In this document: piece after piece, positions 4,710 through 38,181 of the stretch | Position numbering within the stretch: position 1 is the stretch's first letter | How the letters are laid out: each line of letters opens with the position of its first letter | Assembly: GCA_016861265.1 (NCBI GenBank) | Contig: BOLA01000001.1 | Coordinates: 11,569 to 75,568, forward strand | Direction of reading: 5' to 3' | Length of the DNA: 64,000 nucleotides | From: Patescibacteria group bacterium | GTDB lineage: Bacteria > Patescibacteriota > Dojkabacteria > J137 | Program-made: the position numbers and the translations under genes | Notes under the pieces: model-generated | The model's input: the letters and a program-made list of their open reading frames with translations, nothing else | What the model was told of the DNA's origin: nothing | Database searches by the model: none

Positions 4710-4725
4710 CTTTTAAATTTTCCAT

Positions 4726-17304: not shown

Positions 17305-18429
17305 TTGCAAATTTTATCTATTTTGGATGATAAAATGAAATACATGAAAAAAATAAAGGAACTTGCTAATTTTAATAAAATTATTCTTTTACTAGGTCTC
17401 CTGGTTATTTTCTTTTATCAAATCAAAGGAGGATACAACTATTTTAACTTCTCTCCCGAAGGGCAATTAATTGTATTAAGAGTGCAAGATTTTATTACTC
17501 TTGTTTTAAGTATTATTGTAGAGGCATTTCCTTTTGTAATACTAGGCGTTTCGATATCGACTTTAATTGGAATAAATTTTTTTGGCTGGCTAAAGAAAAC
17601 AACATATAACAATAAGAAGGTACTACTGCCATTATATCTGCTCTATTTTTACTCTTCAAAGATAGATAGTAAGCTTAAAAAGAACAGGATTTATTCTCAT
17701 GTTAAGGTTTCATTGTTGGGAGTTTTCTTGCCTGTGTGTGAATGTGGAAATGTTCCTGTAGCAAGAAGATTGCTCATGGGTGGCTTTACAGTATCACAGT
17801 CAATTACTTTTTTATTAGCAGCACCAATACTAAACCCTGTCACGTTTCTGACAACACTCGAGGCGTTCAATTACGATAAATCTATAGTAATTATTAGATT
17901 ATTATCAGGCTTTTTAATAGCGAACTTTATTGGAATAATATTAAGCTTTAAAAAACCGCAAAACGAATTCCTTAATTTAGATTTCTATCAGGAAATTTGT
18001 GAAATTAACGAGCATGGTCATTCAAAAAATACCTTAAAAGAAGCTTTAAATATATTTAATCGTGAATTTATTGAGATGTTTAAAGTTCTTATTATTGGTG
18101 CAGCCCTTGCTGCAGCTTCGCAAACATTTATTCCAAGAGATATTATCATTACAATTGGTCAGAATCCTGTACTTTCAATATTAGCTATGATTTTACTTGC
18201 GTTCGTAATATCGATTTGTTCAAATGTGGACGCATTCTTTGCCCTTTCTTATGTAAATAGTTTTACTATTGGTTCTGTTTTAGGTTTTCTTATATTTGGA
18301 CCAATGATAGATATAAAATTACTTACAATGCTAAGAACAACTTACAAGGCAAAGTTATTGGCAATTGTTACTCTGTTTGTATTCCTTTTCAGCTTTCTTA
18401 TTGCTTTACTAGTTAATTTTATTAAATGA
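17305..18429 (+). CDS. COG0701/DUF318-type permease with conserved CxC-G motif
   Basis: 374 aa. ~8 TM segments. VCECGNVPVARRL matches the C-x-C-G motif of this permease family. Confidence 0.7.
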   Translation: MQILSILDDKMKYMKKIKELANFNKIILLLGLLVIFFYQIKGGYNYFNFSPEGQLIVLRVQDFITLVLSIIVEAFPFVILGVSISTLIGINFFGWLKKTTYNNKKVLLPLYLLYFYSSKIDSKLKKNRIYSHVKVSLLGVFLPVCECGNVPVARRLLMGGFTVSQSITFLLAAPILNPVTFLTTLEAFNYDKSIVIIRLLSGFLIANFIGIILSFKKPQNEFLNLDFYQEICEINEHGHSKNTLKEALNIFNREFIEMFKVLIIGAALAAASQTFIPRDIIITIGQNPVLSILAMILLAFVISICSNVDAFFALSYVNSFTIGSVLGFLIFGPMIDIKLLTMLRTTYKAKLLAIVTLFVFLFSFLIALLVNFIK

Positions 18430-19265
18430 ACAAATTAATAAGCTCAGTAACATTAATGGGAATGGGATTATATGGAATACTACTATTTAACGCTAACAAA
18501 CTTGGTTTGTATATTCACCCACGTTTTTTTGAGGAATCATATATTGCAAGCATAGTTGCATTTATTATTGGCATAATCAGCTTAGTTTACTTTATATACA
18601 CTGAAAAAAATAAGTTAATAATTCAAATAAAACAAATTGTTAATAATAGAATCTTAATGATCGCTGTTTTGTTAGGACTTTCATTTTTTATTAATTCAAT
18701 ATTCTTAATAGTTGCTGCCTTAGTTGTATTAATGCCTAACAAGAACGGTATTCCAAAAGAATTTGCTTCGGCACTACTAACCCTTGGTATTATATCTATA
18801 GGACTCTTTTTACCTGCTAAAGGTCTTAGTTCTATTACAGCATCTCAAAGATCAATTGATTTAAATTCCATTAACTTAACTCAAGATACAATATCGGCAG
18901 TTCAAAACTTTAGTAAGAGTACTACAAATTTTTCTTTAGGGGATTGGATTGCAATGCAAAATTTTAATCCTGATCCGGAATTCTATGTAGATAAAGAAGT
19001 TAAGGTTTCTGGTTTTTTGTATAAACCTACTAACTTAAATTTAAATACAGAAACTGCAGTTGTAGCCCGATTCATTATTACCTGCTGCGCTGTAGATGCA
19101 AGACCTGTAGGCTTGCGAATGCAACTTATTGAAGACTCTGATTTAAAACCCGATGATTGGATTGAGGTTATAGGCAAATTTGGACTAGATAAAAATAATG
19201 AGTTAATCATATTAGCTGAAAATATTAATAAGATATCAGAACCTACAAATCCCTATATTTACTAA
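18426..19265 (+). CDS. TIGR03943/DUF1980-family membrane protein (usual partner of COG0701 permease)
   Basis: 279 aa. N-terminal TM helices. C-terminal domain has the paired-Cys motif FIITCCAVDARPVG. ATGA overlap with the upstream permease. Family name recalled from memory. Confidence 0.6.
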   Translation: MNKLISSVTLMGMGLYGILLFNANKLGLYIHPRFFEESYIASIVAFIIGIISLVYFIYTEKNKLIIQIKQIVNNRILMIAVLLGLSFFINSIFLIVAALVVLMPNKNGIPKEFASALLTLGIISIGLFLPAKGLSSITASQRSIDLNSINLTQDTISAVQNFSKSTTNFSLGDWIAMQNFNPDPEFYVDKEVKVSGFLYKPTNLNLNTETAVVARFIITCCAVDARPVGLRMQLIEDSDLKPDDWIEVIGKFGLDKNNELIILAENINKISEPTNPYIY

Positions 19266-20677
19266 TGAGAAAGGTTACTAAATTTCACAAAATTACCGCT
19301 TTAAGTATTAGTCTATTAATTACTTTAATAGTTCTATTTTTATTATTAAATACATTTGTTCATCCAAAAGTGACTTCGGTAATAATAAAAGGAGGACAAG
19401 ATTCAGCACTAATTAGAAATCAGCAAATCAGACTAGAATTTAATAGACCAATAAAGCGAGATAATATTGCTGATTATATAAAAATAAATCCTTCTATTGA
19501 ATTTAGAACAATATGGTCCGGCAATTCACTGGTGGTAATACCTAATCAGGTGCTCGATTCAGATACAAACTATAATTTAAGTATCAGCAGGGAACTAGAA
19601 GATATTTATAATGAAAAATTTATAGAAGATTTTGAATTTATATTTAAGACTGAGCAACCAAAAATAGCTTTAATTGAAAAACCTTTAAATTCAAATCAGG
19701 AAATACTTGCAATTTACAATTCTGATTTAACAAACCGACAGCAAATTCTTGTACGCGAAAATATAAAATACTTTGGAATAAACGAAAACTTTGCAGTTAT
19801 AGTAACAGAAAATAATTACTCAAATAATATTGAAATACTGAATCGAAGAACAAACGAAGTCAGAAGTCTTGACCTTGTAAATCAAAGAGTTAGTGCATTT
19901 TCGTTTTCCAGCTCCACAACAAGGAACGAATTTGCGTATACAAAACAAGACATTGAAGTAAAGGCAAATTATTATCTACCCAAATCAAAGTCCAAGATTT
20001 ACATTTATAGTCTGGATTCTTATTCACAAAATGAATTTAATCCACAGGGTACTGCAGAAGATGTTACATCGTTAGAATATTCAAATAAGGGTGAATCGTT
20101 ACTCTATAGGACTGGGGATTCATTTTATAGCATTGCTGAAAGTCAAAATCCTGAAAACTATACAGGAATCGGTAGATTTTTATCGGAAGGAAATTTTAGC
20201 AAAGATGACGATGATATTGTATTTATAGCATTCGATCCACTTAACACTTACGATAGTATTCAATTCTTAAGTGTTTTTAATTCAAACAGAGAAACTACGA
20301 AAATTGAGTCGAATAATATTCCTGTGTTAGATCCAAAGTTTAAAAATAAAACAGACAATATTGTTTATGCAGAAAGAATGAATGAACTGATAACAACTAA
20401 AGGAATATATAAAATAATGGAAACAGATTTAAAAGGCAATAAAAAGGAACTATTAGCATCGGCAGAAAACAAAAGCCTTGAGTTACCTGTGCTTAGTTTT
20501 GATGATAGATATATTGCCATTGAGCAATACACAGCTGAACAGCTTAAAGATTATCAGAATTCAAGGAATTTGGGTTTTCAAACCAAACCGCATGCAGGAA
20601 ATATAATTATATTCGATACCGTTCTTAATAAAATATACGATAATAACGTCTTAGGCTCAAGTGTACAGTGGTTATAA
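19265..20677 (+). CDS. N-terminally anchored extracytoplasmic protein, probable beta-propeller/TolB-like repeats (470 aa)
   Basis: Signal-anchor ITALSISLLITLIVLFLLL. Repetitive beta-rich composition with Asn/Ser/Tyr-rich blades. Translationally coupled (TAATG) to the DUF1980 gene. Confidence 0.5.
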   Translation: MRKVTKFHKITALSISLLITLIVLFLLLNTFVHPKVTSVIIKGGQDSALIRNQQIRLEFNRPIKRDNIADYIKINPSIEFRTIWSGNSLVVIPNQVLDSDTNYNLSISRELEDIYNEKFIEDFEFIFKTEQPKIALIEKPLNSNQEILAIYNSDLTNRQQILVRENIKYFGINENFAVIVTENNYSNNIEILNRRTNEVRSLDLVNQRVSAFSFSSSTTRNEFAYTKQDIEVKANYYLPKSKSKIYIYSLDSYSQNEFNPQGTAEDVTSLEYSNKGESLLYRTGDSFYSIAESQNPENYTGIGRFLSEGNFSKDDDDIVFIAFDPLNTYDSIQFLSVFNSNRETTKIESNNIPVLDPKFKNKTDNIVYAERMNELITTKGIYKIMETDLKGNKKELLASAENKSLELPVLSFDDRYIAIEQYTAEQLKDYQNSRNLGFQTKPHAGNIIIFDTVLNKIYDNNVLGSSVQWL

Positions 20678-20738: not shown

Positions 20739-21674
20739 ATGAAGAAAAGATTTGTTGTATTAACCTCCATCTCATTCCTAGTGGCTGCTGCCTTTATTAT
20801 CTTTAACCCTTTAAATGCTGCCGGTATAACAAATATTACCGTAGTTCCTGTTTCTCAAAACCAATCAACAGCTACAGATGTTGTAATAACATTTACACCA
20901 TCTACGGCAATTACAAATTCAACAATACTTATCTACTCTTACGATCCGGCTTTTACAGGTGGTGCGGCTCTAACAGATACAGATATTGCAATTTTAGGAA
21001 CTAATATAACAAGTAAAGCGTGTAGTGATTTTGTAGCGGGTTACTTTACTTGTACTTTAACAACATCGGCATCTGTTACTACACCAGTAACAACAACAAT
21101 TGGTGATACTAATCAGTTAACAACTCCATCAAGTGCGGGTAACTATAGTTTTTCAGTAACAGCTGATATAGGTGGCTTAGGAAGTACAATAGATAGCGGT
21201 GCCGGTTTGGCCTACATTTCAACAGATACTGTAAAAGAAAATGAAGTTCAAGTGACTGCTTACGTTCCGCCTAATCTTTCTTTAGAAGTATACCAAGAAG
21301 GTACTAATACAAAACTTGTAGATCCAAATAACTGCGCAATGGGGGTATTGTCTATTAATACTGTTAAAACTTGTGCCTACGATGTAGGAGTTGGTACCAA
21401 TAATGCAACAGGTGCAAGTGTTACAGTTTCTTCCGACGGGAAGTTAAGAGACAGTGCGACCGACTTTACAGATACAACGGGAGTGATTACAGCAGGTACA
21501 GAAGCTTATGGGTTTTATATTTCTACTCAAGGAACTAGGTTTAGTGCAGCCGGTTTTTTTAATACTTCTTATCAGGCTGTACCTCAATCGGGAACTCAGT
21601 TTGCTACTTCAAGTAACACTAGTGATTTACTAAATACTGCCCAACATGACCATAACTCATGCAGCCAGCATTAG
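20739..21674 (+). CDS. secreted Thr/Ser/Gly-rich surface protein (311 aa), paralogous to 22760..23908
   Basis: Cleavable signal peptide (MKKRFVVLTSISFLVAAAFIIFNPLNAAG). Blocks shared with 22760..23908 in the same order: (V)ITFTPS...; xSLEV/A; two conserved Cys. Confidence 0.55.
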   Translation: MKKRFVVLTSISFLVAAAFIIFNPLNAAGITNITVVPVSQNQSTATDVVITFTPSTAITNSTILIYSYDPAFTGGAALTDTDIAILGTNITSKACSDFVAGYFTCTLTTSASVTTPVTTTIGDTNQLTTPSSAGNYSFSVTADIGGLGSTIDSGAGLAYISTDTVKENEVQVTAYVPPNLSLEVYQEGTNTKLVDPNNCAMGVLSINTVKTCAYDVGVGTNNATGASVTVSSDGKLRDSATDFTDTTGVITAGTEAYGFYISTQGTRFSAAGFFNTSYQAVPQSGTQFATSSNTSDLLNTAQHDHNSCSQH

Positions 21675-21735
21675 TTCAGTTACACAAGTTGGTAATTATG
21701 CTCATAAGTTAACATATAGGGCATATACAAATTAA

Positions 21736-22698
21736 ATGATAACTAAGGGAAAACTCTACAGAGCAATTTTATTTATAGTCGCATTTAGTTTGACAGGCAA
21801 CTTTCTTGCTTTAGTACTTAAAGCTGCTGTTATAAGTCCCGATAAATACTACCTAGAAACTGAAAGTTCAAATCTTGATAATCAAAAATTAGTCATATAC
21901 TCTACTCCAAATCAGGAGAAGCCATTAACATACAAAATAAAACCAATTGGAGTAAAGAAAGTTGGAGAGAATAATGAGAGAATTTTCTATGAGCCCGATG
22001 CCACTAACAATCTAGATGCTGCAAATTGGATTAAAATAATTGATGATCAAGTTACTGTAAATCCAGGGGAAACAATTGAAGTAAAATGGAATTTAACACT
22101 ACCTCAAAATTCGTCTTGTGATACAAAGCTTGCAGGAATTGCGGTGTCTGAAGTTGCATCTGATAACGCAGCAGATAGTGGATCGAATGTATCCGTAAAT
22201 AATGAGGTAATCAGTCAAGTACATATTAATACAACAAGAGAAAACAACGAAAGCTGTAAGTATTATGAAGATCTTTTACTTCAAGAATTTTCAGCTACTC
22301 AGACTATACCAGTTTTCAATTACGATAATATAGAATTCACTACTTTAATAGAAAATAGATCCGATTATTTATCAAGAAACATTAAAGGTTGGTTATATAG
22401 AACTTATTGGTCTTGGAAAAAAAGAAGTAATTGAGTTTAATGATTCAAATCTTGATATCTACCCCAACTCATTAAGACGATTTAATAGTGTTTGGGTAGA
22501 CAAAGACTATCCTAGGGGAGATTTTTTACAAGAAATTATTTACGAAGTTTCTCACTTTAGATTTGGACAATACGAAGCAAGATTAGGTGTAACATTTAAT
22601 GTTAGTCCTAAGATAGTATCTTCTGTGTATGTATGGATTATTCCGTGGAAAATTGTGACTGTAGTTGCAATTATATTAGCTATAGTTATTCTAGTGGT
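21736..22698 (+). pseudogene. C-terminally anchored surface protein (third paralog of 23905/24848), interrupted at an A7 homopolymer
   Basis: The annotated ORF 21736..22434 ends ...WSWKKRSN*. The +1 frame stays open from 22352 to 22698 with no start codon. It encodes ...FRFGQYEARLGVTFNVSPKIVSSVYVWIIPWKIVTVVAIILA, which aligns with the C-terminal anchors of the next two paralogs (FTFGRFEAKLDFLYG...IYIIPIGIPVIILVVILLI). Removing one A from A7 (22417-22423) fuses the frames into a ~320-aa protein, the same size as its paralogs. Confidence 0.5.
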
Positions 22699-22759
22699 AA
22701 TTAGAGACAGGAAAATCTAGAGAACTTAAAGCGCTAAAAAGAATCTCTAAGAAAAATTA

Positions 22760-23908
22760 ATGCTTTTAGAAAAATTTAAACTAAAATTTTTAGCCTTGAT
22801 ATTACTGGCCCTATTATTCTTTGTACCAAGTGTAAAAATAGAAGCCTCAAGACTTGTAGGTATATACAATAATCTAGGCAGAATTGCTGCAAATGTGAAT
22901 TCAATGCATAGTGTTTACTTTGTATTGACCGATCCTATAAATGCTGGAGAGGCCTTTACAGTAACATTTCCATCGGCTTTTACCTTCGGATCACTTTATG
23001 ACCACACAGATATGAGCTTGGATGAGGGCTCAACTAATATCTGCGGCATAGCTACGTTTACCAATAAACCACTTGGAGCTAGCCCATCTGGTTCTACTTG
23101 GGGAGTAAATAAGAGTGGTAATACAGTATTTACTATTACTTCGGGTACAGGCACTTTAGCTACTGGCATATGTATTCGAGTGAATTTTTACACTAATGGT
23201 GCAAATCATACTGTCACTAATCCTAACGTTACCACAAATACCGTCTATAATATGACTGTCGATACCGCAACAGAGTCAGGACAACTATCTGTAATCATTT
23301 TAGGCGATTCAAGTTCAGCAAACGTAGACCAGGTTTCTTTAGAAGCAAATGTATCTACTAGTATACTAATGGGAATTGATACAGTTACATCTGATTGTAA
23401 TAACAATACTCAAACCACTCCTGCAAATCAGACAGTAAACTTTGGTCAGTTGTACCCGGGAGTACCCGTTATTAGTGGGAACTCAATTCCTTTTGTATGT
23501 ATTGAAGCGGGTACTAATTCGGTTAATGGTTTTAGAATTCTGGTACAAAGTTCAAGAGGAGATTCTATAGGCGGGCTTGTATCGGGTAGCGGAGATATTC
23601 TATCTGCAACAGCAAACCTAAATTTGTTAGGCACTACTACAGGTTATGGATTAAGAGTTTCATCGTTAGGTACAGCAACTCTGGGTAGCTTTACGGCAAC
23701 ATCACCCTTTAATTCAAGTACTCCGGGAGATATAGGACAAGTAAGTGGCAGCTCCGGTACAGCATCCCAAATTGTTAATTCAACTGCTCCAGTTAGATCG
23801 GGAAATACGGCAAGAATTGCAATAGAATTAGGAGCAAAATCGAGTACAGCTACACCTGCTGACACTTATTCAGATGTATTAACATTCACTGCATTCACAA
23901 ACTTATGA
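22760..23908 (+). CDS. secreted Thr/Ser/Gly/Asn-rich surface protein (382 aa)
   Basis: Signal peptide (LALILLALLFFVPSVKIEASR). Same block order as 20739..21674. C-terminus ...ATPADTYSDVLTFTAFTNL resembles the terminal beta-strand of WxL/SCPU-type surface beta-sandwich proteins (from memory, not verified). Confidence 0.55.
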   Translation: MLLEKFKLKFLALILLALLFFVPSVKIEASRLVGIYNNLGRIAANVNSMHSVYFVLTDPINAGEAFTVTFPSAFTFGSLYDHTDMSLDEGSTNICGIATFTNKPLGASPSGSTWGVNKSGNTVFTITSGTGTLATGICIRVNFYTNGANHTVTNPNVTTNTVYNMTVDTATESGQLSVIILGDSSSANVDQVSLEANVSTSILMGIDTVTSDCNNNTQTTPANQTVNFGQLYPGVPVISGNSIPFVCIEAGTNSVNGFRILVQSSRGDSIGGLVSGSGDILSATANLNLLGTTTGYGLRVSSLGTATLGSFTATSPFNSSTPGDIGQVSGSSGTASQIVNSTAPVRSGNTARIAIELGAKSSTATPADTYSDVLTFTAFTNL

Positions 23909-24858
23909 GGTTAAATGGTAAGTATTTAAAAGTTCTGGTAATAATTACTTTAATAATAAGTGTGTTCGCACAACCTCTTATAATCCCAATATATGCTCAA
24001 TCCGAAACTCAGAGTAATGGTAACGGAATTTCGGTGAGTCCTGTTAAGATTCAGAGAAACTTTAAAGGAAACGATAAGGACACTTTAAATTTTACACTCC
24101 TTAACAACGAGGACCAAGATATTAAACTCTCTGTTACACTGAAGAGTTTTAAACTACTAAATAACAATCAAGAAATATCCTTTGATACAACTATAGACGA
24201 AACGGTATTAAACTGGATTAGGAACTTTAAGAATTCTGTAGTTTTAAAACCGAAGGAAAAAACGGAATATAAATTAGAGCTTAATATTCCTGGAGATACT
24301 AAACCAGGAGGATATTTGTTCGGTATATTCTTTGAAACTCAAGGAAAATTTTCTGGTGTTTCTATAAAGTCCGAAACTATAATTAAGCAAAGCATAGGTG
24401 TTCCTGTTATTGTAAACATTGCTGGTGTAGAAGGTATAAGTTATGGACAGATTACTTTAGATTCCTACGATGTTAGCTATAATATAATTACTAATTCAGT
24501 AGATTTCTCTGTAGTAATCTTGAATAATAGTAATCAGATTATTACACCTACTGGTGTCATTACTATAAAAAAGGTATTTGGAACTGGACCTGAAGAATTA
24601 ACATCATCATTTAATTCGGATGGTAAACTAGTAAATGCATTTTCGCTAAGGAGTTTTACAAAAGAAGTACTATTAAATAGATTCACATTTGGAAGATTCG
24701 AAGCAAAATTGGATTTTTTATATGGATTAGAAAATAATGTGTATAGTCAAACTGTGAGTATATATATTATTCCAATCGGTATTCCAGTTATTATTCTTGT
24801 AGTAATACTTTTAATTATATTTAAATTAAGAGCAAGAAAACTATCAAGTGAAGATTAA
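23905..24858 (+). CDS. surface protein with N-terminal signal peptide and C-terminal TM anchor + basic tail (317 aa); DUF916/DUF3324-like architecture
   Basis: Signal peptide VLVIITLIISVFAQPLIIPIYAQS. ~270-aa beta-rich ectodomain. C-terminal IYIIPIGIPVIILVVILLIIFKLRARK. ATGA overlap with the upstream gene. Confidence 0.55.
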   Translation: MRLNGKYLKVLVIITLIISVFAQPLIIPIYAQSETQSNGNGISVSPVKIQRNFKGNDKDTLNFTLLNNEDQDIKLSVTLKSFKLLNNNQEISFDTTIDETVLNWIRNFKNSVVLKPKEKTEYKLELNIPGDTKPGGYLFGIFFETQGKFSGVSIKSETIIKQSIGVPVIVNIAGVEGISYGQITLDSYDVSYNIITNSVDFSVVILNNSNQIITPTGVITIKKVFGTGPEELTSSFNSDGKLVNAFSLRSFTKEVLLNRFTFGRFEAKLDFLYGLENNVYSQTVSIYIIPIGIPVIILVVILLIIFKLRARKLSSED

Positions 24859-25792
24859 AGTTCTAAGTCTAATAATTTTTTTTGTAGCATTATTACCATA
24901 TGCTTTAGTTAAAGCCGATGTTAATCAAGGCATTACACTAGCTCCCATATCTGCCGATATAAAACTAAAGGTGGAACAAGAATATAAGGGGTCTTTTACA
25001 ATAAGAAATAACGAGCAAAACAATTTAAATATAGAATTTAAAGAAGCGGATCTTAATGATGGTCAGGTTACCAACGAAAGTAATCTCTACTGGTTTAGTA
25101 TAGATTCAACTAAACATATTCTTGATGCAAACTCTGATTTACAGGTTGAATATACCGTAAAAATCCCTACAGACACCACTCCGGGTCGGTATTCAAAAGC
25201 AATTCTAATTAAATTGGTTAACACCTCTGAAGGAGAATCAACTTTTAACTTAAGCTTAACCTACGCAGTTAGTATATATGTAGAATCCTTATTTAATAAT
25301 GAGTTAGGCACTAGAATTAAGGAATTCTACTCAGATTCCAAATTAATTTTCGAGAATAAGGTGAATTTAAACCTTAACGTGGAGAACGCATCGGGGTTCT
25401 CTAAACCACTAATTAATCTAAATATAATCAACCCAAGCGGTAAGATTGTTTATACAACTGTACTTAACGAATCGCTTCAGACATTAAGAGAACAAAAAAC
25501 TTATAAAGTTACAGCATCTTGGCCTAATATTAATTTATTTGATATTGGACCATATACAGCTCAAGCATTGGTAACAGATACACTTACTGGTAAAACTTCG
25601 GTTAATAGAATAACCTTTTTTAACTTAAACTGGCTTTATTTTGGAATAATCTTACTAGTATTTGTTGGAGGGGTGTTCTTTTTAAGATTTGTTAGGGGGT
25701 TAATTAAAATTATAAAAATAAACAGAGATGTTAACTCTTCAGAAAATTTACTGGGAGTAAAAAAAGACTCTAGAAAAAGAGGAGCAAAATAG
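24848..25792 (+). CDS. surface protein paralog with N-terminal signal and C-terminal TM anchor (314 aa)
   Basis: Signal peptide LSLIIFFVALLPYALVKADV. C-terminal WLYFGIILLVFVGGVFFLRFVRG. Same architecture as 23905..24858, which it overlaps by 11 nt. Confidence 0.55.
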   Translation: MKIKVLSLIIFFVALLPYALVKADVNQGITLAPISADIKLKVEQEYKGSFTIRNNEQNNLNIEFKEADLNDGQVTNESNLYWFSIDSTKHILDANSDLQVEYTVKIPTDTTPGRYSKAILIKLVNTSEGESTFNLSLTYAVSIYVESLFNNELGTRIKEFYSDSKLIFENKVNLNLNVENASGFSKPLINLNIINPSGKIVYTTVLNESLQTLREQKTYKVTASWPNINLFDIGPYTAQALVTDTLTGKTSVNRITFFNLNWLYFGIILLVFVGGVFFLRFVRGLIKIIKINRDVNSSENLLGVKKDSRKRGAK

Positions 25793-25793
25793 A

Positions 25794-26666
25794 TTACAGA
25801 TTAGAATCTTCAGTACTTATTTGTTGATAAACAGAATCTGGCACCTGAAAGTAATATTCTGAGTTTTGTTTATGAACGTAATAATTCCCTTCTAGTATAT
25901 AAAATTCAAATTTGTACTCGTTATTTATAGATACATCTAAAACAGGTGTTGTGTTTACCAGTAAATTAGTGATTTGTTGCGAGGCAATAGATGTCCCTTC
26001 TATGTTAGATATGTAGTATAGAATATTCTTGAGTTGTTCGAATTCCACTGTCTTACTATTTTTAAACCATACTGAATATACCAATTTATATTTATTCTCG
26101 TTAATATTAAACTCAGTTATTGAATTAGGGTCAATTCTAGTTATAGTCTTATCTCTATAAAAGTCTTCCTCATAGTCGAATATTGATTCAATACTTGTGT
26201 CTGTACTTAGAACCTTGCTAGTGTTAAAAAATCTTATAAAGTTTTCATCGTCAGAATTAACTTTACCCACTAATATTTTTACTGACGAATACTTGGTGGA
26301 GATTATTAAATAACTGGCAGAGTCATCTACCTGGTAATTAGCGTATGTATTTGAATCAGAAGTTACTAGGGAGTTTATATTTATCTGTAGTAATTTTGAA
26401 AGAGTAATCTCAACTATTCGGTTAGATGCTGCTTTACTATTAATACTCCAATTATGACTATTTTTAGAAAAAAACAGAAGCGCATTGTTAGTTTTATATT
26501 CAACGCTCTGAATATCATCCAGTTTTATATTTTCAAACAATGGTTCAGTAATATAGGCGCTATCTTTCTTTTTAGCCCATAAATCTATTAGTGATACACC
26601 TAAAATTAATACTGCTGCACAAGCAAAAAATATTAGCTTTTTTGGTACAGCAGTATTTTTTATCAT
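25794..26666 (-). CDS. DUF4340-like N-terminally anchored protein (290 aa) downstream of GldG-like gene
   Basis: N-terminal TM helix (LIFFACAAVLILGVSLI). Occupies the slot after GldG homologs that DUF4340 proteins usually fill (family assignment by context). ATG overlaps the upstream gene stop. Confidence 0.45.
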   Translation of the reverse strand: MIKNTAVPKKLIFFACAAVLILGVSLIDLWAKKKDSAYITEPLFENIKLDDIQSVEYKTNNALLFFSKNSHNWSINSKAASNRIVEITLSKLLQININSLVTSDSNTYANYQVDDSASYLIISTKYSSVKILVGKVNSDDENFIRFFNTSKVLSTDTSIESIFDYEEDFYRDKTITRIDPNSITEFNINENKYKLVYSVWFKNSKTVEFEQLKNILYYISNIEGTSIASQQITNLLVNTTPVLDVSINNEYKFEFYILEGNYYVHKQNSEYYFQVPDSVYQQISTEDSNL

Positions 26667-28912
26667 TAAATTGAATAATTTCTATTTACTATTCGCCTCC
26701 TATTTACCGTTACTATCCCAAAGATTAAACCACATATTAATACAGGAATGCCCATGCTAACCGCAACAAATGTTAGTTGTTGTGAATTATTTAAATTTAA
26801 TGGTTTAGCTGAATTCGTCTTGGCTTTAATGCTACCAATAAGACTATCCCGAACCAACCATGAAATTGAATTTAGTGTAAAAGATATAACTTCTTTATTC
26901 TGTTCCTGTCTCTGGGCTAGGGCTTCTAATATATTGTCTGTAATAAAGTCCGTATCCGAAATTATTACTCCTCTTCCACCTTTAGAATTTTCAATTGCAA
27001 CCCCTACAGTTTGTTTAGCATCAGTACTTTTTGCATTCCAATTTTGTTCAAATGAAGTATTAAATTCCTCTTCTGTTTGTACATTTGAATTACTTCCAGT
27101 CTCAAGTAAAGGATAAATCGTTTGGCCTTCTTTTTGCGTAGTCGTAATTGAAGAAGCCCAAAGAAGTGATACAGCAGATACATCCTTGTTTATATTCGTA
27201 TTATTTTCAATTGGCTTTGATACAATCCACTGAGGGAAATTAAATATAACAGGTGAGAATATGGATTGTAGAGCAATAATATTATTATTTTCTAGATCAT
27301 AAACAATATCGTTGTTAACTTTTATACCCGCATCCTCGAATAAAGTGGCTAAAGAGTTAGGATTAACAGTGGGTGTCTCCGAATTAGTATCTACGGCATC
27401 AGTAAGTAAGAATACACTACCTCCATTATTATAGTAGTTTTTTAATGCTTGTATGGATTGTTCATCGAATGGTTGATTTGCACCAGGTATTATTACTGCA
27501 TCTATATCGCTAGATATTAGAGCTGAATCGTTAGAAAGATCAAGTTGCTGGACATCAAATAAATCAACAAGTTCTGAATATAGCTGAGTTAGGTCACTGT
27601 TTGTAGAATGCATTACATTGTTACTTACAAACGCAATCTGCTTTTTTTCAGTTTCTGCCAACTTCTTAATTTTTTTTGTAACCTGGTACTCTAAATCTGT
27701 TAAAACAGCTGTATTAAAATTTAATACCTCATTTTTATCTTGATATTTTAGAATTATTCCAAAGTAACCAACAACAACTTGGGATGAATCCTGAGAGTTA
27801 ACTGAAAATTGAATAGGCGTTATACCGGCTGATTCGGCTTGGTTTTTTACGCTTTCATCTTTATCTGGTTCTTTAGTGCTTACATTTATTTTTCCTGCAG
27901 ATGCCTTGGAATAATCTGTGAGTAAATCGCTTACTCGTCTCAATTCATTTTGAAATTGAATAGGTAAATTCGATGACACATAGTAATCAATGTATAAAGG
28001 GTCCTTTATATTATTTACCACTGCTGTGGTTGCCGGAGAAAGCGTATATCTTTGATCAGATGTAAAATCTAATCTTCCCGGTATTACTTGTCCTAACGTA
28101 CCTACTAGCCCAGCAATAATCACCAACAATACAGTAACTATTCTACTATTCCTTAAATATTTATGATTACTTGGGTATTTATCTTTAATTAGTAGATAAT
28201 ATGCAATTGATAGGAATAGAAATATGAAAGCTACAAAGTAAAATAAGTCTCTTAAATCAAGGACTCCCCTTGATATTGATTGAAAATGAGACAAAAGACT
28301 TATTTTTTCTAGTAAAGTCGAAACTCCAGATGGAAGCGTAGACACAAAACTTGACCCTGCCACAATTAGTAATGCAACAATAACTGCAGTTGTAAGAAAG
28401 GACGCTACTTCAGTCTTAAATAAAGTGGACACAGCAATTCCTACGCTAACAATTGCGATGGCAAGCACAATTGCACCTAAGTACTGCATAAATACTTGTC
28501 CAAAGTCTACACCCGCATAATTTGCCGTAATTATTGTAAATGGTAATGTTAAAAGTATTAATGCCGTGGATAAGATGGAGTATGATACAAATTTTGAGAA
28601 TAGCAACTCAAGTTCGGAAATTGGTTTTGATAACAAATATTCAATAGTGCCATTATTTTTTTCCTTCGATACTGATCCCATTACAAGAGCTGGTATTGCA
28701 ATAGCCATTGCAAAAACCATGTAAGAGAAAACCTGAGTTAAATCGTTGGTCCCGAATTTTAAAAACTGACCAATCCCAAACACAAGTATTCCAACTACTA
28801 ATATAAATAGCAGACCCACAATAAGTCCTGTGGTCGAAAATATTACCGATTTTAATTCTCTAGCAATTAAAGATAGTATTGCTTTATTAAATTTAAATTT
28901 CTTTTTTTTCAT
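26666..28912 (-). CDS. fused ABC-2 permease (GldF-like) + GldG-like auxiliary domain with C-terminal TM anchor (748 aa)
   Basis: The N-terminal ~250 aa have 6 TM helices (ABC-2 type). The next region starts RLDFTSDQRYTLSPATTAVVNNIKDPLYIDYY, a typical GldG N-terminus. Terminal TM helix VAVSMGIPVLICGLIFGIV. Confidence 0.7.
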   Translation of the reverse strand: MKKKKFKFNKAILSLIARELKSVIFSTTGLIVGLLFILVVGILVFGIGQFLKFGTNDLTQVFSYMVFAMAIAIPALVMGSVSKEKNNGTIEYLLSKPISELELLFSKFVSYSILSTALILLTLPFTIITANYAGVDFGQVFMQYLGAIVLAIAIVSVGIAVSTLFKTEVASFLTTAVIVALLIVAGSSFVSTLPSGVSTLLEKISLLSHFQSISRGVLDLRDLFYFVAFIFLFLSIAYYLLIKDKYPSNHKYLRNSRIVTVLLVIIAGLVGTLGQVIPGRLDFTSDQRYTLSPATTAVVNNIKDPLYIDYYVSSNLPIQFQNELRRVSDLLTDYSKASAGKINVSTKEPDKDESVKNQAESAGITPIQFSVNSQDSSQVVVGYFGIILKYQDKNEVLNFNTAVLTDLEYQVTKKIKKLAETEKKQIAFVSNNVMHSTNSDLTQLYSELVDLFDVQQLDLSNDSALISSDIDAVIIPGANQPFDEQSIQALKNYYNNGGSVFLLTDAVDTNSETPTVNPNSLATLFEDAGIKVNNDIVYDLENNNIIALQSIFSPVIFNFPQWIVSKPIENNTNINKDVSAVSLLWASSITTTQKEGQTIYPLLETGSNSNVQTEEEFNTSFEQNWNAKSTDAKQTVGVAIENSKGGRGVIISDTDFITDNILEALAQRQEQNKEVISFTLNSISWLVRDSLIGSIKAKTNSAKPLNLNNSQQLTFVAVSMGIPVLICGLIFGIVTVNRRRIVNRNYSI

Positions 28913-28913
28913 A

Positions 28914-29831
28914 TTAATTATTTAATGTTAGTGATCTAAATACTTCTTCAAGGTTTTGATTTACAATTTTTAATTCATAAATTTGCCAGTTATTCTCTTT
29001 AGCTCTGGTATTGATTTCTTCAATTATTTTTTCAACGTTACCACCTTTTATTTCAAATTGATGTTTACTATCTTTCGAGCCAATAAGTTTAACTTGAGTA
29101 GCGTTTATATTAATTGTTGGCTTCGATTTAGATTTTATGACTAATTCAATTGTAGTGTTTTTAAGCTGATCCTTGGCAAAATCTTCCTTGGATCCATCCT
29201 TGACCACTTCACCTTTATTAATAATTACAATTCTATTACACATTAACTCTACTTCTTGAAGAACGTGTGTAGAAATTATCACTGTTTTGTTCTTACCAAG
29301 CTCCATAATTAAGTTTCGAATTTCACCTCTTTGATTTGGATCTAAACCTTCTGTAGGTTCGTCTAATATTAGAATCTCTGGGTCAGAAACTAAAACTTGC
29401 GCTAATCCAACTCTTTGCTTATATCCTTTAGATAATTCCGATATTGGTTTGTAGAATACTTTTTCTAGACCTGTTGCTTTAACAACATAATCAATTCTTT
29501 CCTTATATTTATCCTTACTAACATTGTTTAGACTCAGTGAATACTCAATTGCTTCCTTAACAAGCATTTCTTTATATAGCGGATTGCTTTCAGGCATAAA
29601 ACCAATTCTTTTTTTCCCATAAGCAGGAAAATCTCTAATACTTTTGCCATTTATCAGTACGTCACCTTCGTCGGGAATTATTAGACCGGTGATTATCTTC
29701 ATGGTAGTACTCTTTCCGGCCCCATTCGGACCTAGTAAGCCTACAATTTGTCCCTTGTCTATATTTAAACTGAGATTATTTACTGCAGTATTTTGGTTAT
29801 ATTTTTTAGTTATATTTTTAATTTCGACCAT
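28914..29831 (-). CDS. ABC transporter ATP-binding protein (GldA-like)
   Basis: Walker A GPNGAGKST. ABC signature LSKGYKQRVGLAQ. Walker B ILILDEPTEGLD. H-loop STHVLQE. 1-nt gap to the permease gene. Confidence 0.85.
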   Translation of the reverse strand: MVEIKNITKKYNQNTAVNNLSLNIDKGQIVGLLGPNGAGKSTTMKIITGLIIPDEGDVLINGKSIRDFPAYGKKRIGFMPESNPLYKEMLVKEAIEYSLSLNNVSKDKYKERIDYVVKATGLEKVFYKPISELSKGYKQRVGLAQVLVSDPEILILDEPTEGLDPNQRGEIRNLIMELGKNKTVIISTHVLQEVELMCNRIVIINKGEVVKDGSKEDFAKDQLKNTTIELVIKSKSKPTININATQVKLIGSKDSKHQFEIKGGNVEKIIEEINTRAKENNWQIYELKIVNQNLEEVFRSLTLNN

Positions 29832-29949: not shown

Positions 29950-31746
29950 TTATTTACTCTTTAATTGCTTAGCCCGATTAATTAAATCTTCTATTTCCTT
30001 TAACCCATTGTCCCAGAACTCTTTTTTAGTAATATCAATTCCTAGATCAAGAAAAATATCTTTAGGTGATTTGCTTGTACCCGCACTCAAGAATTCTTTA
30101 ACTTTTATAATAAACTTTGGATCTTTTTTTACACTATTCTGTAATGATTTTGAAATTAGAAGACCGCTTGCGTAAGAATAAACATAAAAGTAAGTTCTAA
30201 TATGGGTCCAACTTACCCATTTATATTTTGTAGGTTTGTAATCAATTGCATCTCCGTATAAAGGAGCGAATGAGTTAAGGAAGATTTCGCTAATGTCCTC
30301 TTTGGATAAGTAACCATGTTCTCTAAATTTACTGTGTAAATTCTGTTCAAACATATAGCATGCTACCTGCATAAATATTGTTCCAATGTCGTCTTCAATT
30401 TTCTGCATTAGTAGAATAAACTTTTGTTCATCGTTAGAGTCTTTATAAATTTTCTGCCAGACAAAGTCTTCCATGAACGTACTGGCAACTTCTGCAGTAG
30501 AAAGAACTGTGCCATAATTAATCTCATTTTGTACTCTCATTAATTCATCGTTTATTCCGTGTCCCATTTCATGTGCCAGTGTTAAACAGTCTTGAATCTT
30601 TCCTGTAAAATTTAAAAGAATATAAACTGGGAGGTTCTTACTTACACTTGCACAGAATGCACCGTTCACTTTACCTTTTGCTGGATATACATCTACTCTT
30701 CCATCCTCAAAAAATTTTCTGTAGATTTGCTCGAATTCAGGGTCTAAATTCTTCATTACGTCTGCCACTAAATCAACTGCTTGGTCAAGTGTATACTCTT
30801 TAACATTATTTGGATCAACATTCTCATCTAAATATTCTAAACCCAATAATGCTTCGTGTGCCTTGAGTTGTTTTTTGTTAACAAGACCGGCTTTAAATCT
30901 AAAATAATCTTGAACCAGACCAAATTTCGAACTAACACTTTCTACCATAGCATTTACAACCTCGGTATCGATATCATCGGCTAAATGTCTGCTCGCTTCC
31001 GGTATTTCGTAACTTCTTAATTGATCAGAATTTCTTTTGTATTCCAAAATTGAATTAATTTCATTTTCCGCAAGAGGAGCCCATCTTTCTCTAATTTTCA
31101 ACAATGCTTCAAAAGCCGAATCTCTTACTGCTACGTTTCTAGTGTCTATCATTGGGCCAATTAACGAAACGGGTCTTTTTTCTATATTACCTTCTTCTGT
31201 AAGGACCTCTTCAGAATCATTTGCAATAAAAGATTCAACCATTTGACTCCAATTATACTTTGCTGGCTTGGACAGTAACGCAACAACCTTCTCTTGTTCT
31301 TCAGTAAGTAGATACTTAGACTCTTTGAATAGTCTTTCTAAGAAATGCTTATATTCAGCAAGTACGGGGGCATCTAGAAATGTATTCTGTGCAGATAACT
31401 CAATTTTTGAGAGCCTATGGGTAAAAAATTGAAGGTCATTTGCTAAATTTGTTGCAAATTCATCAATCTTATTAATGTGGGCTTTTATTGAAGGATCACC
31501 TTGTTGTAAGGCATCTTTTAGTTCAAAATAGAAACTTAGGCCTGAGTCAATTCCATACTTCTCACTTAGTGTAGAATACTCATCCAATGCCTTTTTAAGT
31601 GTATCAGGACTAGTTAAATACTCTGTATTGCTTAACCATTTTTCTATAAACTCCTGCCAAGCATTACGAACCTGTTTTTTTAAAGATTCTATATATTCAG
31701 GGTCCTCAGAAGTTAAAAGCAGTTGTAAATTCCATTTGGTGTTCAT
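29950..31746 (-). CDS. pepF: oligoendopeptidase F (M3B family)
   Basis: 598 aa. Zinc motif HEMGH (LAHEMGHGIND). Family-typical length and downstream Glu region. Confidence 0.85.
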   Translation of the reverse strand: MNTKWNLQLLLTSEDPEYIESLKKQVRNAWQEFIEKWLSNTEYLTSPDTLKKALDEYSTLSEKYGIDSGLSFYFELKDALQQGDPSIKAHINKIDEFATNLANDLQFFTHRLSKIELSAQNTFLDAPVLAEYKHFLERLFKESKYLLTEEQEKVVALLSKPAKYNWSQMVESFIANDSEEVLTEEGNIEKRPVSLIGPMIDTRNVAVRDSAFEALLKIRERWAPLAENEINSILEYKRNSDQLRSYEIPEASRHLADDIDTEVVNAMVESVSSKFGLVQDYFRFKAGLVNKKQLKAHEALLGLEYLDENVDPNNVKEYTLDQAVDLVADVMKNLDPEFEQIYRKFFEDGRVDVYPAKGKVNGAFCASVSKNLPVYILLNFTGKIQDCLTLAHEMGHGINDELMRVQNEINYGTVLSTAEVASTFMEDFVWQKIYKDSNDEQKFILLMQKIEDDIGTIFMQVACYMFEQNLHSKFREHGYLSKEDISEIFLNSFAPLYGDAIDYKPTKYKWVSWTHIRTYFYVYSYASGLLISKSLQNSVKKDPKFIIKVKEFLSAGTSKSPKDIFLDLGIDITKKEFWDNGLKEIEDLINRAKQLKSK

Positions 31747-31792
31747 AGCTAGTTTTAAAAAATACTATAAATATTACCATAGGAATGCTTTA

Positions 31793-31820
31793 TTGACTTA
31801 TGGGCTACTTTTGATATACT
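31793..31820 (+). promoter_or_regulatory. candidate sigma70-type promoter for tRNA-Gly (-35 TTGACT, 16-nt spacer, -10 TATACT)
   Basis: TTGACT at 31793-98 and TATACT at 31815-20. tRNA 5' end at 31841. Confidence 0.35.
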
Positions 31821-31840
31821 CTATGTGCTTTAGTATTGAC

Positions 31841-31912
31841 GCGGGTATAGTATATCGGTCATTATGTCAGTTTTCCAAACTGAAGAGGCGGGTTCGATTC
31901 CCGCTACCCGCT
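31841..31912 (+). tRNA. tRNA-Gly (anticodon UCC)
   Basis: GCGGGTATAGTATATCGGTCATTATGTCAGTTTTCCAAACTGAAGAGGCGGGTTCGATTCCCGCTACCCGCT. 7-bp acceptor stem. Anticodon stem TCAGT/ACTGA, loop TTTCCAA (anticodon TCC). T-arm GCGGG-TTCGATT-CCCGC. Confidence 0.85.
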
Positions 31913-31982
31913 TTTTTCTTCAAATATCCTTTCTGTGTACTTATAGTCGTTAGTATTGGTCTGATTGAATATATAAGGATTA

Positions 31983-32678
31983 GTGTATAATTTAGAAATG
32001 CAAATTACTGAACTTTTTCCAAGATTTGATAATCTTCACAAAATACATGGTAGTAAAAACTTAACTTCTATATACGGTGCTGGTGAAATAAATAATCCAA
32101 ATATTTGTCTTATTTTCATGAATCCTACTGCTAAGAATATAGCCTCCAGTCCTAATTGGCAGGGAATAAAAGCACCTTGGTTAGGAACAAAGAATGTATG
32201 GCGATTATTTAATAAGTTAGGGTTGTTTAAGGATGCTCAAATTTTAAAACAAATTGAAACAATTAAACCTAGTGAATGGACAAACGATTTTGCAGAAGAA
32301 GTTTACAATGAAGTTGCAAAGCAATCTATCTATATAACAAATATTGCCAAATGCACACAAGACGATGCTAAACACTTATCAGATTCTATCTATAAAGAAT
32401 ATTTACCACTAATGATTGAAGAAATAACCTATATAAAACCCAAACTAATTCTTGCACTGGGAAACCAAGTTAACTCAGTATTATTGGGCAGACCCGTATC
32501 AGTATCAAAATATACAACTGACGAATTTGAATATCTACCTATACCCAGTGGGGATCAAGTAAAAGTATATCCTTCTTATTATCCTGTAGGACAAGGCATG
32601 CGTAATATGTCGAAGGCAATATATAGAATTAATAAAGTTTTAGAGATAAGTAAAAATAGTTCCAACTCTACTCCCTAA
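31983..32678 (+). CDS. uracil-DNA glycosylase superfamily-like protein (tentative)
   Basis: 231 aa. Weak resemblance to UDG-superfamily motifs (YGAGEINNPNICLIFMNPTA region; C-terminal ...YPSYYPVGQG). The true start is probably the ATG at ~31998 (MQITELF). Low confidence on function. Confidence 0.4.
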   Translation: MYNLEMQITELFPRFDNLHKIHGSKNLTSIYGAGEINNPNICLIFMNPTAKNIASSPNWQGIKAPWLGTKNVWRLFNKLGLFKDAQILKQIETIKPSEWTNDFAEEVYNEVAKQSIYITNIAKCTQDDAKHLSDSIYKEYLPLMIEEITYIKPKLILALGNQVNSVLLGRPVSVSKYTTDEFEYLPIPSGDQVKVYPSYYPVGQGMRNMSKAIYRINKVLEISKNSSNSTP

Positions 32679-36974: not shown

Positions 36975-37745
36975 TTATTCGAATAAGGTTAATGCAAACA
37001 TAATTGCAACACCAACAATGAATGCAGTTATTTCAATAACATATTTTTTTACCCCAGCCTTTTTATGTATAACCGGTAGTAAGTCTGCCAATGCAATATA
37101 TATAAATTGACCAATTGCCAATGGTATTAAAAATTTCTCAATGGAGCTGTCTAAACTTCTTAGTATAAATACCAAAATCACCCCTATAATTGAGGTTAGT
37201 GCTGTTATAAAGTTTACTAATAGAATCTTGGATTTTGACCAACCTGAGTAGGCCATAACAGAAACATCTGCAAGTTCTTGGGGTATTTCATGGAGAATCA
37301 CAGCTATTGTTGTGGCAATTCCAACTTCTGGACTTATTAAAAAGCTTGCACCTATTGCTAGGCCATCTAAAAGATTGTGTATTGCATCTCCAAAGGTGTT
37401 TAATTTACCCAGATGAGAATGTCCCTTATGACTATGGGTATTTTCGTTTGCAATAACCTCAATTTCTTGTTCTGAATCGTGGCTGCAGTGTAAATAAGCT
37501 TCTACTACAAACATAATAATTATGCCTATTATTATTCCCGCAATTGTGCTCATATCGTATCCATAGTTTTCTATATGATCTGGCAGCATATGTATAAATA
37601 CATCTCCAATAAGTGTTCCAGCAGCAAATGAGATTAATGAGGTAATAAAAAAGCCTTTATATATTTTATCTACTAAAATAATAATTCCTATAAAGGATAT
37701 TAGACTAACTGCAATTGATGCAATTATGGGCAGGACAAATTCCAT
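36975..37745 (-). CDS. ZIP-family divalent metal (zinc) transporter, ZupT-like
   Basis: 256 aa. 8 TM. His-rich loop HSHKGHSHLG. ZIP signature HEIPQELADV in TM4-5. Confidence 0.8.
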   Translation of the reverse strand: MEFVLPIIASIAVSLISFIGIIILVDKIYKGFFITSLISFAAGTLIGDVFIHMLPDHIENYGYDMSTIAGIIIGIIIMFVVEAYLHCSHDSEQEIEVIANENTHSHKGHSHLGKLNTFGDAIHNLLDGLAIGASFLISPEVGIATTIAVILHEIPQELADVSVMAYSGWSKSKILLVNFITALTSIIGVILVFILRSLDSSIEKFLIPLAIGQFIYIALADLLPVIHKKAGVKKYVIEITAFIVGVAIMFALTLFE

Positions 37746-37827
37746 AGCTAGACTTAAAAATTAGATATAGGATTTTAAACTACTTAATTGACTAATGCAA
37801 CAGTGTCGCATTATAATTTGTTTAATA

Positions 37828-38181
37828 ATGAGAAAAAGTCAAAAAAGAGAAAAAATTCTGGAGGTGTTTAAAGATGGCGATCTTCTAACTGCTCATCAGG
37901 TAACTGAACGCCTTCCAGACATAGATAGGGCAACTATATACAGAAATATAGCTTTATATGTTGAACAAGGAATATTAAGAGAAGTAAATGTTCAAAAAAA
38001 TGTATCTAGCTACGAAATAAACAAAGAACACGACTATCATCAGCATTTTATTTGCAATAACTGTAACAAAATAATTCCAGTAGATATAAACCCGGAGGAT
38101 ATAAAAAAGATAATTCCAAAGTTCTTAGTAGTAAAGGATTTTGAACTTAACATAAAAGGTTTATGTAAAAATTGTGATTAA
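37828..38181 (+). CDS. Fur-family metalloregulator (likely Zur given the divergent ZIP transporter)
   Basis: Fur-like N-terminal HTH (REKILEVF...LTAHQV). HHxHxxC...CxxC metal sites (HDYHQHFICNNCNKI...CKNCD). The ORF track begins at 37795. The ATG at 37828 gives a typical Fur length. Confidence 0.8.
   Translation: MRKSQKREKILEVFKDGDLLTAHQVTERLPDIDRATIYRNIALYVEQGILREVNVQKNVSSYEINKEHDYHQHFICNNCNKIIPVDINPEDIKKIIPKFLVVKDFELNIKGLCKNCD

Follow-up and report, generated by a model that had tools for sequence, protein, structure and literature searches.

The DNA analyzed here is a stretch of 64,000 nucleotides, referred to below as the window, from a Patescibacteria group bacterium of the Dojkabacteria (NCBI GenBank assembly GCA_016861265.1, contig BOLA01000001.1, positions 11,569 to 75,568 of the forward strand). 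The source is a reduced genome of the candidate phyla radiation (CPR); the window has a G+C content of ~32%, is ~91% coding, and contains only tRNAs (n=3) according to an Rfam scan. Three adjacent genes on its minus strand encode an ATP-binding cassette (ABC) module related to the GldA, GldF and GldG proteins of Flavobacterium johnsoniae, and this module meets a plus-strand locus of surface-protein genes tail to tail. An initial annotation, made from the nucleotide sequence without database searches, had read the module as GldA, a fused GldF-GldG protein (GldFG) and a DUF4340 protein, and had proposed from the adjacency that the module takes part in export or assembly of the surface proteins. 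The module comprises the following features, numbered from the first base of the window.

28914..29831, minus strand: GldA-like ABC ATPase, 305 residues, nucleotide-binding subunit (PF00005, TIGR03522, intact ATPase motifs)
26666..28912, minus strand: fused ABC-2 permease and GldG-type ectodomain protein, 748 residues (Pfam, NCBIfam, transmembrane scan, AlphaFold2 (AF2), Foldseek)
28202..28873, minus strand: permease (ABC2_membrane_2) part of the fusion, residues 14–237 (PF12679, E 4.9e-13; structural match to NosY)
26912..28060, minus strand: extracytoplasmic GldG-type part of the fusion, DUF7088 at residues 285–388 and ABC_transp_aux/GIFT at residues 423–667 (PF23357, PF09822, PF23355, Foldseek)
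25794..26666, minus strand: N-terminally anchored DUF4340 protein, 290 residues, probable accessory ectosubunit (PF14238; transmembrane segment at residues 11–29)
25790..25796, no strand assigned: convergent junction, consisting of the TAG of the 314-residue surface gene, one spacer base and the stop of the DUF4340 gene (sequence)

The three open reading frames (ORFs) lie at the coordinates and on the strand of the initial annotation, and its assignment of each passes the Pfam thresholds. The ATPase gene ends 1 nt upstream of the fusion gene (TAAtATG), and the stop codon of the fusion gene overlaps the start codon of the DUF4340 gene (TAATG). Therefore, the three genes form one translationally coupled unit. 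The ATPase matches PF00005 with an E-value of 9.9e-33, and its translation contains readable Walker A (GPNGAGKS), signature (LSKGYKQR), Walker B (ILILDEP) and H-loop motifs. Its top NCBIfam model is GldA (TIGR03522), with a score of 301.9 bits that is under the cut-off of 402.6. A GldA homolog is located upstream of GldFG at all related loci for which upstream sequence is available.

The fusion protein contains three regions above Pfam gathering scores, ABC2_membrane_2, DUF7088 and ABC_transp_aux, at the residues listed above. In the permease part, PF12679, PF12698 and PF01061 all exceed their cut-offs. DUF7088 (E 1.2e-24) scores 86.9 bits against a gathering score of 27.8, and ABC_transp_aux (E 6.6e-33) scores 114.6 bits against 34.7; the ectodomain also matches IFT52_GIFT (PF23355) with an E-value of 2.2e-7. 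Hydropathy analysis shows six transmembrane segments, a seventh that precedes the ectodomain (residues ~253–281), and an eighth at the C-terminus (residues ~716–734). The positive charge of the termini implies an outward-facing GldG part. The motif RLDFTSDQRYTLSPATT, quoted in the initial annotation, is found at approximately residues 280–296. Thus both GldG domains are present above threshold, flanked by transmembrane segments and encoded together with an ABC-2 permease and an ATPase, as in GldG-type auxiliary proteins. The best NCBIfam models for the fusion are GldF (TIGR03518, 124 bits against 288.5) and GldG (TIGR03521, 137.7 bits against 389.85), both sub-threshold, so that all three subunits fall below the cut-offs in an equivalog test for the GldA/GldF/GldG gliding transporter. 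A search with PADLOC returned generic ATPase similarity only, and an identity as a defence system was ruled out.

An AF2 model of the fusion, built on 22 homologs, has a mean predicted local distance difference test (pLDDT) value of 83.7 and a predicted TM-score (pTM) of 0.74. A Foldseek search of the PDB with the ectodomain identified the N-terminal GIFT domain of IFT52, with a target TM-score of 0.72–0.75, and also OST48/Wbp1. The membrane domain matched NosY (target TM-score ~0.6–0.70), PmtCD and ABCG proteins including ABCG2; the fusion thus has the six-helix NosY/ABCG/PmtCD-like membrane domain that defines the type V (ABC-2) fold. At the sequence level, a PDB search with the fusion gave only marginal matches to IFT52 and NosY (E 0.23 for NosY). 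No solved structure of a GldG-type protein was found by the PDB sequence search or by Foldseek.

The third protein scores 33.9 bits against PF14238 (DUF4340), above the cut-off of 25, and has a single N-terminal transmembrane segment by hydropathy; it is a member of the family. A DUF4340 gene is found in the same position at eight related loci (L001, L003, L007, L008, L011, L024, L026 and L027) and is absent at seven (L005, L015–L018, L021 and L025). In Verrucomicrobium, a gene of the DUF4340 family is essential. For SAR11, a preprint (bioRxiv 10.64898/2025.12.11.693642) predicts that DUF4340 encoded beside ABC genes is part of the transporter and that the cluster forms one complex.

The initial annotation had asked whether the fusion is conserved in relatives, and full-length fusions proved to be common. 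Among 59 word-indexed homologs, approximately 45 hold the permease and GldG domains in a single polypeptide of 720–840 residues, with identities as low as 24%. An exhaustive HMMER search, in which counts are of representatives of clusters at 50% identity, gave 10,128 matches at a threshold of E<=1e-3 and, at E<=1e-30, 643. Of the top 150, nearly all span 720–800 residues and align over their entire length. A Bacteroidota genome (P0057) likewise has an annotated fusion. Unfused GldA, GldF, GldG and DUF4340 genes occur in the same order in metagenome-assembled genomes of a Polyangiales member (L007) and a spirochaete (L008). The module is therefore a member of a very large, already known and functionally uncharacterized family of envelope ABC transporters, in which the fused variant is itself common. 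A literature search found no paper that assigns a substrate to the GldA/F/G class, in agreement with the initial annotation, and none for transporters of the GldG/DUF4340 type. In one Dojkabacteria-like lineage, a gene resembling CYTH/class IV adenylate cyclases is inserted between gldA and the fusion gene (L006:9246-9848, L010:904-1506, L014:493-1095 and L016:8668-9983); the insert of L016 additionally contains a gene similar to FtsJ-like methyltransferases.

Several known systems share parts of this architecture. As in F. johnsoniae GldA/GldF/GldG, which provide the best NCBIfam models, an ATPase is combined with a NosY-like permease and a GldG ectodomain flanked by transmembrane segments, and the ABC signature LSKGYKQR differs by one residue from LSKGYRQR of Flavobacterium GldA. 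In contrast to the Flavobacterium proteins, the scores are far under the equivalog cut-offs, F and G are encoded in one ORF, and a DUF4340 gene follows; the closest genome-collection relatives of the window are metagenome-assembled genomes labelled Saccharibacteria or Dojkabacteria, neither of which is known for gliding or type IX secretion of the Bacteroidota type. No gld-like neighbors turned up among the window genes that were scanned, the rest of the window and the genome not having been searched. The widespread "ABC-type uncharacterized transport system" (COG3225/PF09822) has an ATPase, an ABC-2 permease, a GldG-type protein and DUF4340 in the same order, an order seen in CPR, Polyangiales and spirochaete genomes. 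It differs in that permease and auxiliary protein are one polypeptide here and that many CPR relatives do without DUF4340. NosDFY likewise pairs an ABC-2 dimer, with a NosY-like membrane domain, with a large extracytoplasmic partner; however, the partner here has a GIFT fold rather than the NosD beta-helix, a NosL/NosZ context is lacking, and sequence similarity to NosY is marginal, as noted above. The ectodomain superposes on the GIFT domain of IFT52/OST48, in line with the Pfam match to IFT52_GIFT, but these are eukaryotic scaffold subunits without an ABC partner, and the likeness is one of fold rather than function.

The junction with the surface locus has the compact geometry described by the initial annotation. 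The plus-strand TAG ends at 25792 and the minus-strand stop codon starts at 25794, which leaves one base, 25793, between them. No terminator-like site was found at the 25793 junction, the region holds four such sites where 6.0 are expected from shuffled sequences, and folding of the junction does not differ significantly from that of shuffles (z = −0.41 for the plus strand and −1.69 for the minus strand). However, the window has nine convergent junctions, and in four of them the gap is 1 nt or less (−17, −4, −4 and +1). Since tight junctions are ordinary here and terminator-like sites occur at the level of shuffled sequence, neither the tight gap nor the missing hairpin is informative. A terminator candidate in the minus-strand RNA (25753..25780), a weak long-range stem followed by U7, was rejected on the same minus-strand z value. 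It lies 30–45 nt past the DUF4340 stop, within the 3′ end of the opposing gene, and could attenuate read-through.

The genes that flank the module on either side are as follows.

17305..20677, plus strand: ArsP_1 permease, TIGR03943/DUF1980 and Big_5 trio that heads the surface cluster (PF03773, PF21537, TIGR03943, Big_5)
20739..25792, plus strand: surface locus encoding secreted proteins of 311 and 382 residues and anchored WxLIP-like proteins of 232, 317 and 314 residues (iterated hidden Markov models (HMMs), AF2, profile search)
29950..31746, minus strand: M3 oligoendopeptidase F-like (pepF) gene upstream of gldA (PF01432, TIGR02290)

The conservation of this arrangement was analyzed at 19 informative loci with a fused homolog, on which the gene families of the window were mapped by phmmer and iterated HMMs. 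The locus search used an alignment of 11 sequences, and a metagenome scan added six loci, of which three were too short. The loci fall into three classes. In seven loci (the window, L024, L002, L009, L001, L015 and L021), an anchored surface gene abuts the module with a gap of 0–28 nt. GldFG identity to the window is 97% for L024, 78% for L002, 71% for L009, 69% for L001, 65% for L015 and 62% for L021; thus direct abutment is confined to one clade with at least 62% identity. A convergent geometry with a gap of 0–3 nt is shared by L001, L009, L021 and L024. In L021, a single surface gene is placed between Big_5 and GldFG, with stops 1 nt apart. In L002, a deletion apparently spans the convergent junction (L002:5193-5804 and 3316-5373): the match to GldFG stops at residue 641, the DUF4340 gene is missing, and the homolog of the 314-residue protein is cut to residues 21–154.

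Six more loci, whose GldFG proteins share 35–44% identity with that of the window, have the cluster within ~10 kb in rearranged form. It is divergent in L004, L006, L016 and L018, where the ArsP_1 end faces the module with two to four unrelated genes between them. It is on the same strand in L017 and L025, downstream of the module by 5.7 kb and 1.8 kb respectively, with Zip, Fur, CobW or rubrerythrin genes between. In these distant relatives, it is the ArsP_1-led trio rather than the surface genes that remains near the module. The remaining six loci (L003, L005, L011, L013, L026 and L027) have no cluster within the available flanks, and neither do the two unfused loci outside the CPR, from Polyangiales and a spirochaete. 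The initial annotation had named the occurrence of the module apart from surface-protein neighbors, together with the converse, as grounds for regarding the adjacency as incidental; the first of these is what the six fused relatives and the two unfused loci display. In homolog searches from the surface genes, the 317-residue protein returned 12 close relatives and Big_5 nine, and the most divergent contigs end just past the surface genes.

Genes encoding MutS, MsrB, DUF1801, Zip, Fur and a 519-residue protein turn up near the module in relatives just as frequently as the cluster. The region is thus a large synteny block that has been shuffled by local inversions. The gene order of the window type is related to that of the L016 type by two adjacent inversions with breakpoints at operon boundaries, and such a history would preserve proximity without selection. 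The proposal that adjacency indicates a link in export or assembly is therefore unsupported: abutment is limited to one clade, other arrangements prevail at 35–44% identity, and tight junctions are ordinary in this window.

Taken together, the three genes probably encode a type V ABC transporter with a general role in envelope maintenance, and their contact with the WxLIP-like locus would reflect a gene order inherited within a genome that is 91% coding rather than being a sign of export or assembly. The module is most likely a type V ABC exporter of the housekeeping kind, whose ectodomain has a GIFT fold. Two GldA-like ATPases would sit on a dimer of the 748-residue protein, with a predicted stoichiometry of GldA2-(GldFG)2. 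In each fusion protein, the NosY-like six-helix domain would be tied covalently, through the seventh helix, to the large extracytoplasmic GIFT-type (GldG) domain, which would be re-anchored in the membrane through its C-terminal helix, and the N-anchored DUF4340 protein would serve as an optional ectosubunit. By analogy with other type V systems, ATP hydrolysis would most likely either pull a hydrophobic or glycan-bearing component of the envelope out of the membrane and pass it to the ectodomain, or drive a conformational change of the ectodomain mechanically, as NosFY drives NosD.

Several points weigh against this interpretation. The sequence yields neither a substrate nor a direction of transport. 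In Flavobacterium, the source of the only functional data, gliding requires GldA and GldF, and so does the stability of the lipoproteins GldJ and GldK; this is a surface-assembly phenotype, which also fits a general envelope role. Furthermore, the ArsP_1-DUF1980-Big_5-surface cluster lies no more than ~10 kb from the module in 13 of the 19 loci, in at least four arrangements. The proximity of the cluster outlasts that of most neighbors and could reflect selection, and with this residual linkage a weak functional connection between module and cluster may exist.

The same observations underlie the alternative that survives best, in which the two convergent operons act as one unit and the module exports, anchors or assembles the neighboring surface proteins, or exports a polymer or lipid on which they dock. 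We regard this as unlikely. It is favored by the direct abutment in seven loci of one clade, by the persistence of the cluster within ~10 kb in six more despite rearrangement, by the dependence of surface-machinery lipoproteins on GldA and GldF in Flavobacterium, and by the presence of a GIFT domain in OST48/Wbp1, a subunit of a glycosylation machinery. However, six fused relatives and members of other phyla have the module without the cluster, and the element nearest to it in distant relatives is the ArsP_1 permease, with two to seven unrelated genes between. The number of surface genes varies from one to seven, and two of them are frameshifted here, while the module is unaltered; tight convergent junctions are ordinary in the window, and unrelated genes are equally syntenic. 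The surface proteins moreover have signal-like N-termini and membrane anchors of their own, and the consulted definition of WxL/WxLIP clusters does not include an ABC transporter. It is similarly doubtful that proximity to the cluster has been selected; if it has, the transporter may supply a glycolipid or polymer needed to display variable WxLIP-like adhesins in wall-bound, host-attached CPR bacteria.

The surface locus was characterized separately. Iterated HMMs grouped its products into two superfamilies, a secreted one (311 and 382 residues) and an anchored one (232, 317 and 314 residues), whose genes alternate along the locus. All carry N-terminal hydrophobic, signal-like segments, and the anchored proteins also carry membrane anchors; together with the lack of an ABC transporter in the consulted definition of a WxL cluster, this weakens the case for their needing the module. 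The AF2 model of the 317-residue protein (pLDDT 75) consists of two beta-sandwich domains and a C-terminal helix. Its top PDB matches are the Enterococcus faecium WxLIP structures 9i1y and 9i25 (E 1.7e-11, TM-scores 0.35–0.44), followed by chaperones of chaperone-usher systems. A profile of the anchored family matches EfmWxLIP1 with an E-value of 8.4e-6, the sole significant sequence match in the PDB. In Pfam, WxLIP_PGBD is sub-threshold on the anchored protein (20.4 against 27.3 bits) and the HBD domain of WxLIP has no match in anchored proteins; scans of all members of the surface families gave weak matches only (WxLIP_PGBD in 3 of 18, BslA in 5 of 19). WxLIP proteins consist of DUF916 (PGBD), DUF3324 (HBD) and a transmembrane helix, and bind WxL proteins, of which more than 91% are found in Firmicutes; a WxL cluster is defined by a minimum of one WxLIP together with two WxL proteins.

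The anchored proteins therefore appear to resemble Enterococcus WxLIP in architecture, predicted fold and profile sequence: the 317-residue family has the signal-like N-terminus, two Ig-like domains and C-terminal transmembrane helix of Firmicute WxLIP, and its genes alternate with those of secreted partners as in WxL clusters. In contrast to the Firmicute clusters, the PGBD match is sub-threshold, the TM-scores are low, the host is a CPR bacterium, and no WxL domain is seen in the partners. Neither Pfam nor a PDB profile search, which gave no match of any kind, detected a WxL domain in the secreted family, and on these searches the locus does not qualify as a WxL cluster. Since WxL/WxLIP clusters have been reported almost exclusively from Firmicutes, a CPR counterpart may be new. 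The secreted proteins end in a conserved strand, Y-x-D-x-L-T-F-T-A-F-T-N-L or N-Y-x-H-K-x-x-Y-R-A-Y-T-N (23860..23908 in the window, 382-residue protein, and orthologs), reminiscent of donor-strand or WxL-like terminal motifs; no known domain was detected in it.

The size of the surface array differs markedly between close relatives, with seven genes in L024 (L024:4563-11888), five in the window and one in L021 (L021:11395-12366), while the flanking operons are constant. A secreted/anchored pair of L024 is missing from the window even though the GldFG proteins are 97% identical. The array thus behaves as a variable island between conserved flanks and evolves independently of the module. Two of its genes are frameshifted relative to orthologs: the 311-residue gene (20739..21735) has a 2-nt deletion near 21647, and the 232-residue gene (21736..22714) has a frame change near 22391. 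Neither site is in a homopolymer, and the conserved C-terminal strand and the transmembrane anchor continue in other frames. The two frameshifts represent either pseudogenization or an assembly error.

Upstream of the module, the product of pepF matches PF01432 (E 5.3e-36) and scores 367.5 bits against TIGR02290, under the cut-off of 561.7. The gene is separated from gldA by 118 nt, on the same strand, with a promoter-like site in the gap. It lies upstream of GldA in L001, L002, L009, L015, L021 and L024, as well as in the otherwise non-syntenic L003, L005 and L012, and is the most portable neighbor of the module. In this setting, the module might work with the PepF-like peptidase, either by exporting amphipathic peptides in the manner of PmtCD or by removing peptides embedded in the membrane, with PepF degrading their fragments, a proposal that we consider improbable. 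Its arguments are the direct, same-strand placement of pepF in the seven loci of the window clade, its retention in the three loci that have lost almost all other window neighbors, an M16 peptidase in place of pepF in L017, and the resemblance of the membrane domain to the peptide exporter PmtCD. Against these, pepF is absent from L004, L006, L016, L018, L025, L026, L027 and the loci outside the CPR, the gap contains its own promoter-like site, and PepF, a common housekeeping enzyme, has neither a signal peptide nor a transmembrane segment. A small gene of 141–168 codons without a family match is located between pepF and gldA in L002 (1885-2316), L009 (8543-8968), L015 (2035-2463), L003 (8409-8906), L005 (8509-8943) and L012 (2413-2919); the window, L001, L021 and L024 lack it. 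Just upstream of pepF in the window is a plus-strand tRNA gene (31841..31912). A 120-residue ORF (31628..31990, plus strand) that overlaps this tRNA and a 122-residue ORF (26748..27116, plus strand) that is antisense within the GldFG gene are almost certainly spurious.

At the far end of the surface cluster, the permease of the trio matches ArsP_1 (PF03773) with an E-value of 1.6e-52; the second protein matches PF21537 and scores 142.7 bits against TIGR03943, above the cut-off of 88.8, and the N-anchored third was assigned to Big_5 by Pfam. The three genes have overlapping stops and starts, are translationally coupled, and are conserved as a trio. The trio adjoins ZnuABC in L023 and Zip, Fur, CobW or rubrerythrin genes in L017 and L025; Zip and Fur are at 36975..38181 in the window. 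These neighbors suggest a metal-related role for the trio. A literature search on TIGR03943/DUF1980 found nothing useful. The least probable proposal extends this role to the module as a NosDFY-like part of a metal-homeostasis neighborhood, whose ATP-driven ectodomain passes a metal or cofactor to the surface proteins: NosY is the best solved relative of the permease, the persistent ArsP_1/TIGR03943 pair is weakly similar to Cu/Zn efflux models, and metal genes lie between or beside module and trio in L017 and L025, flank the trio in L023 and are 8–9 kb away in the window, but a NosD-like beta-helix, NosL and a metal-binding motif were not found, NosD and the GIFT ectodomain are unrelated, the metal genes may concern the ArsP_1 pair alone, and the module is widespread without them. 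Support for each of the three alternatives, surface export, cooperation with PepF and a metal role, is circumstantial.

A general envelope-maintenance transporter in an inherited gene order is thus the preferred description of the module. Transporters of the GldG/DUF4340 type are very common, so a solid functional association would be valuable; the locus in the window gives none. If the proximity to the surface cluster were in fact selected, it would give GldG-type transporters from outside the Bacteroidota their first functional lead. The locus provides a clear example of an F-G fusion with a confident model, and a documented warning against inferring functional coupling from tight convergent junctions in reduced genomes. 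The more interesting by-product is the strain-variable WxLIP-like locus in a CPR genome, which may bear on the attachment of these episymbionts to their hosts.

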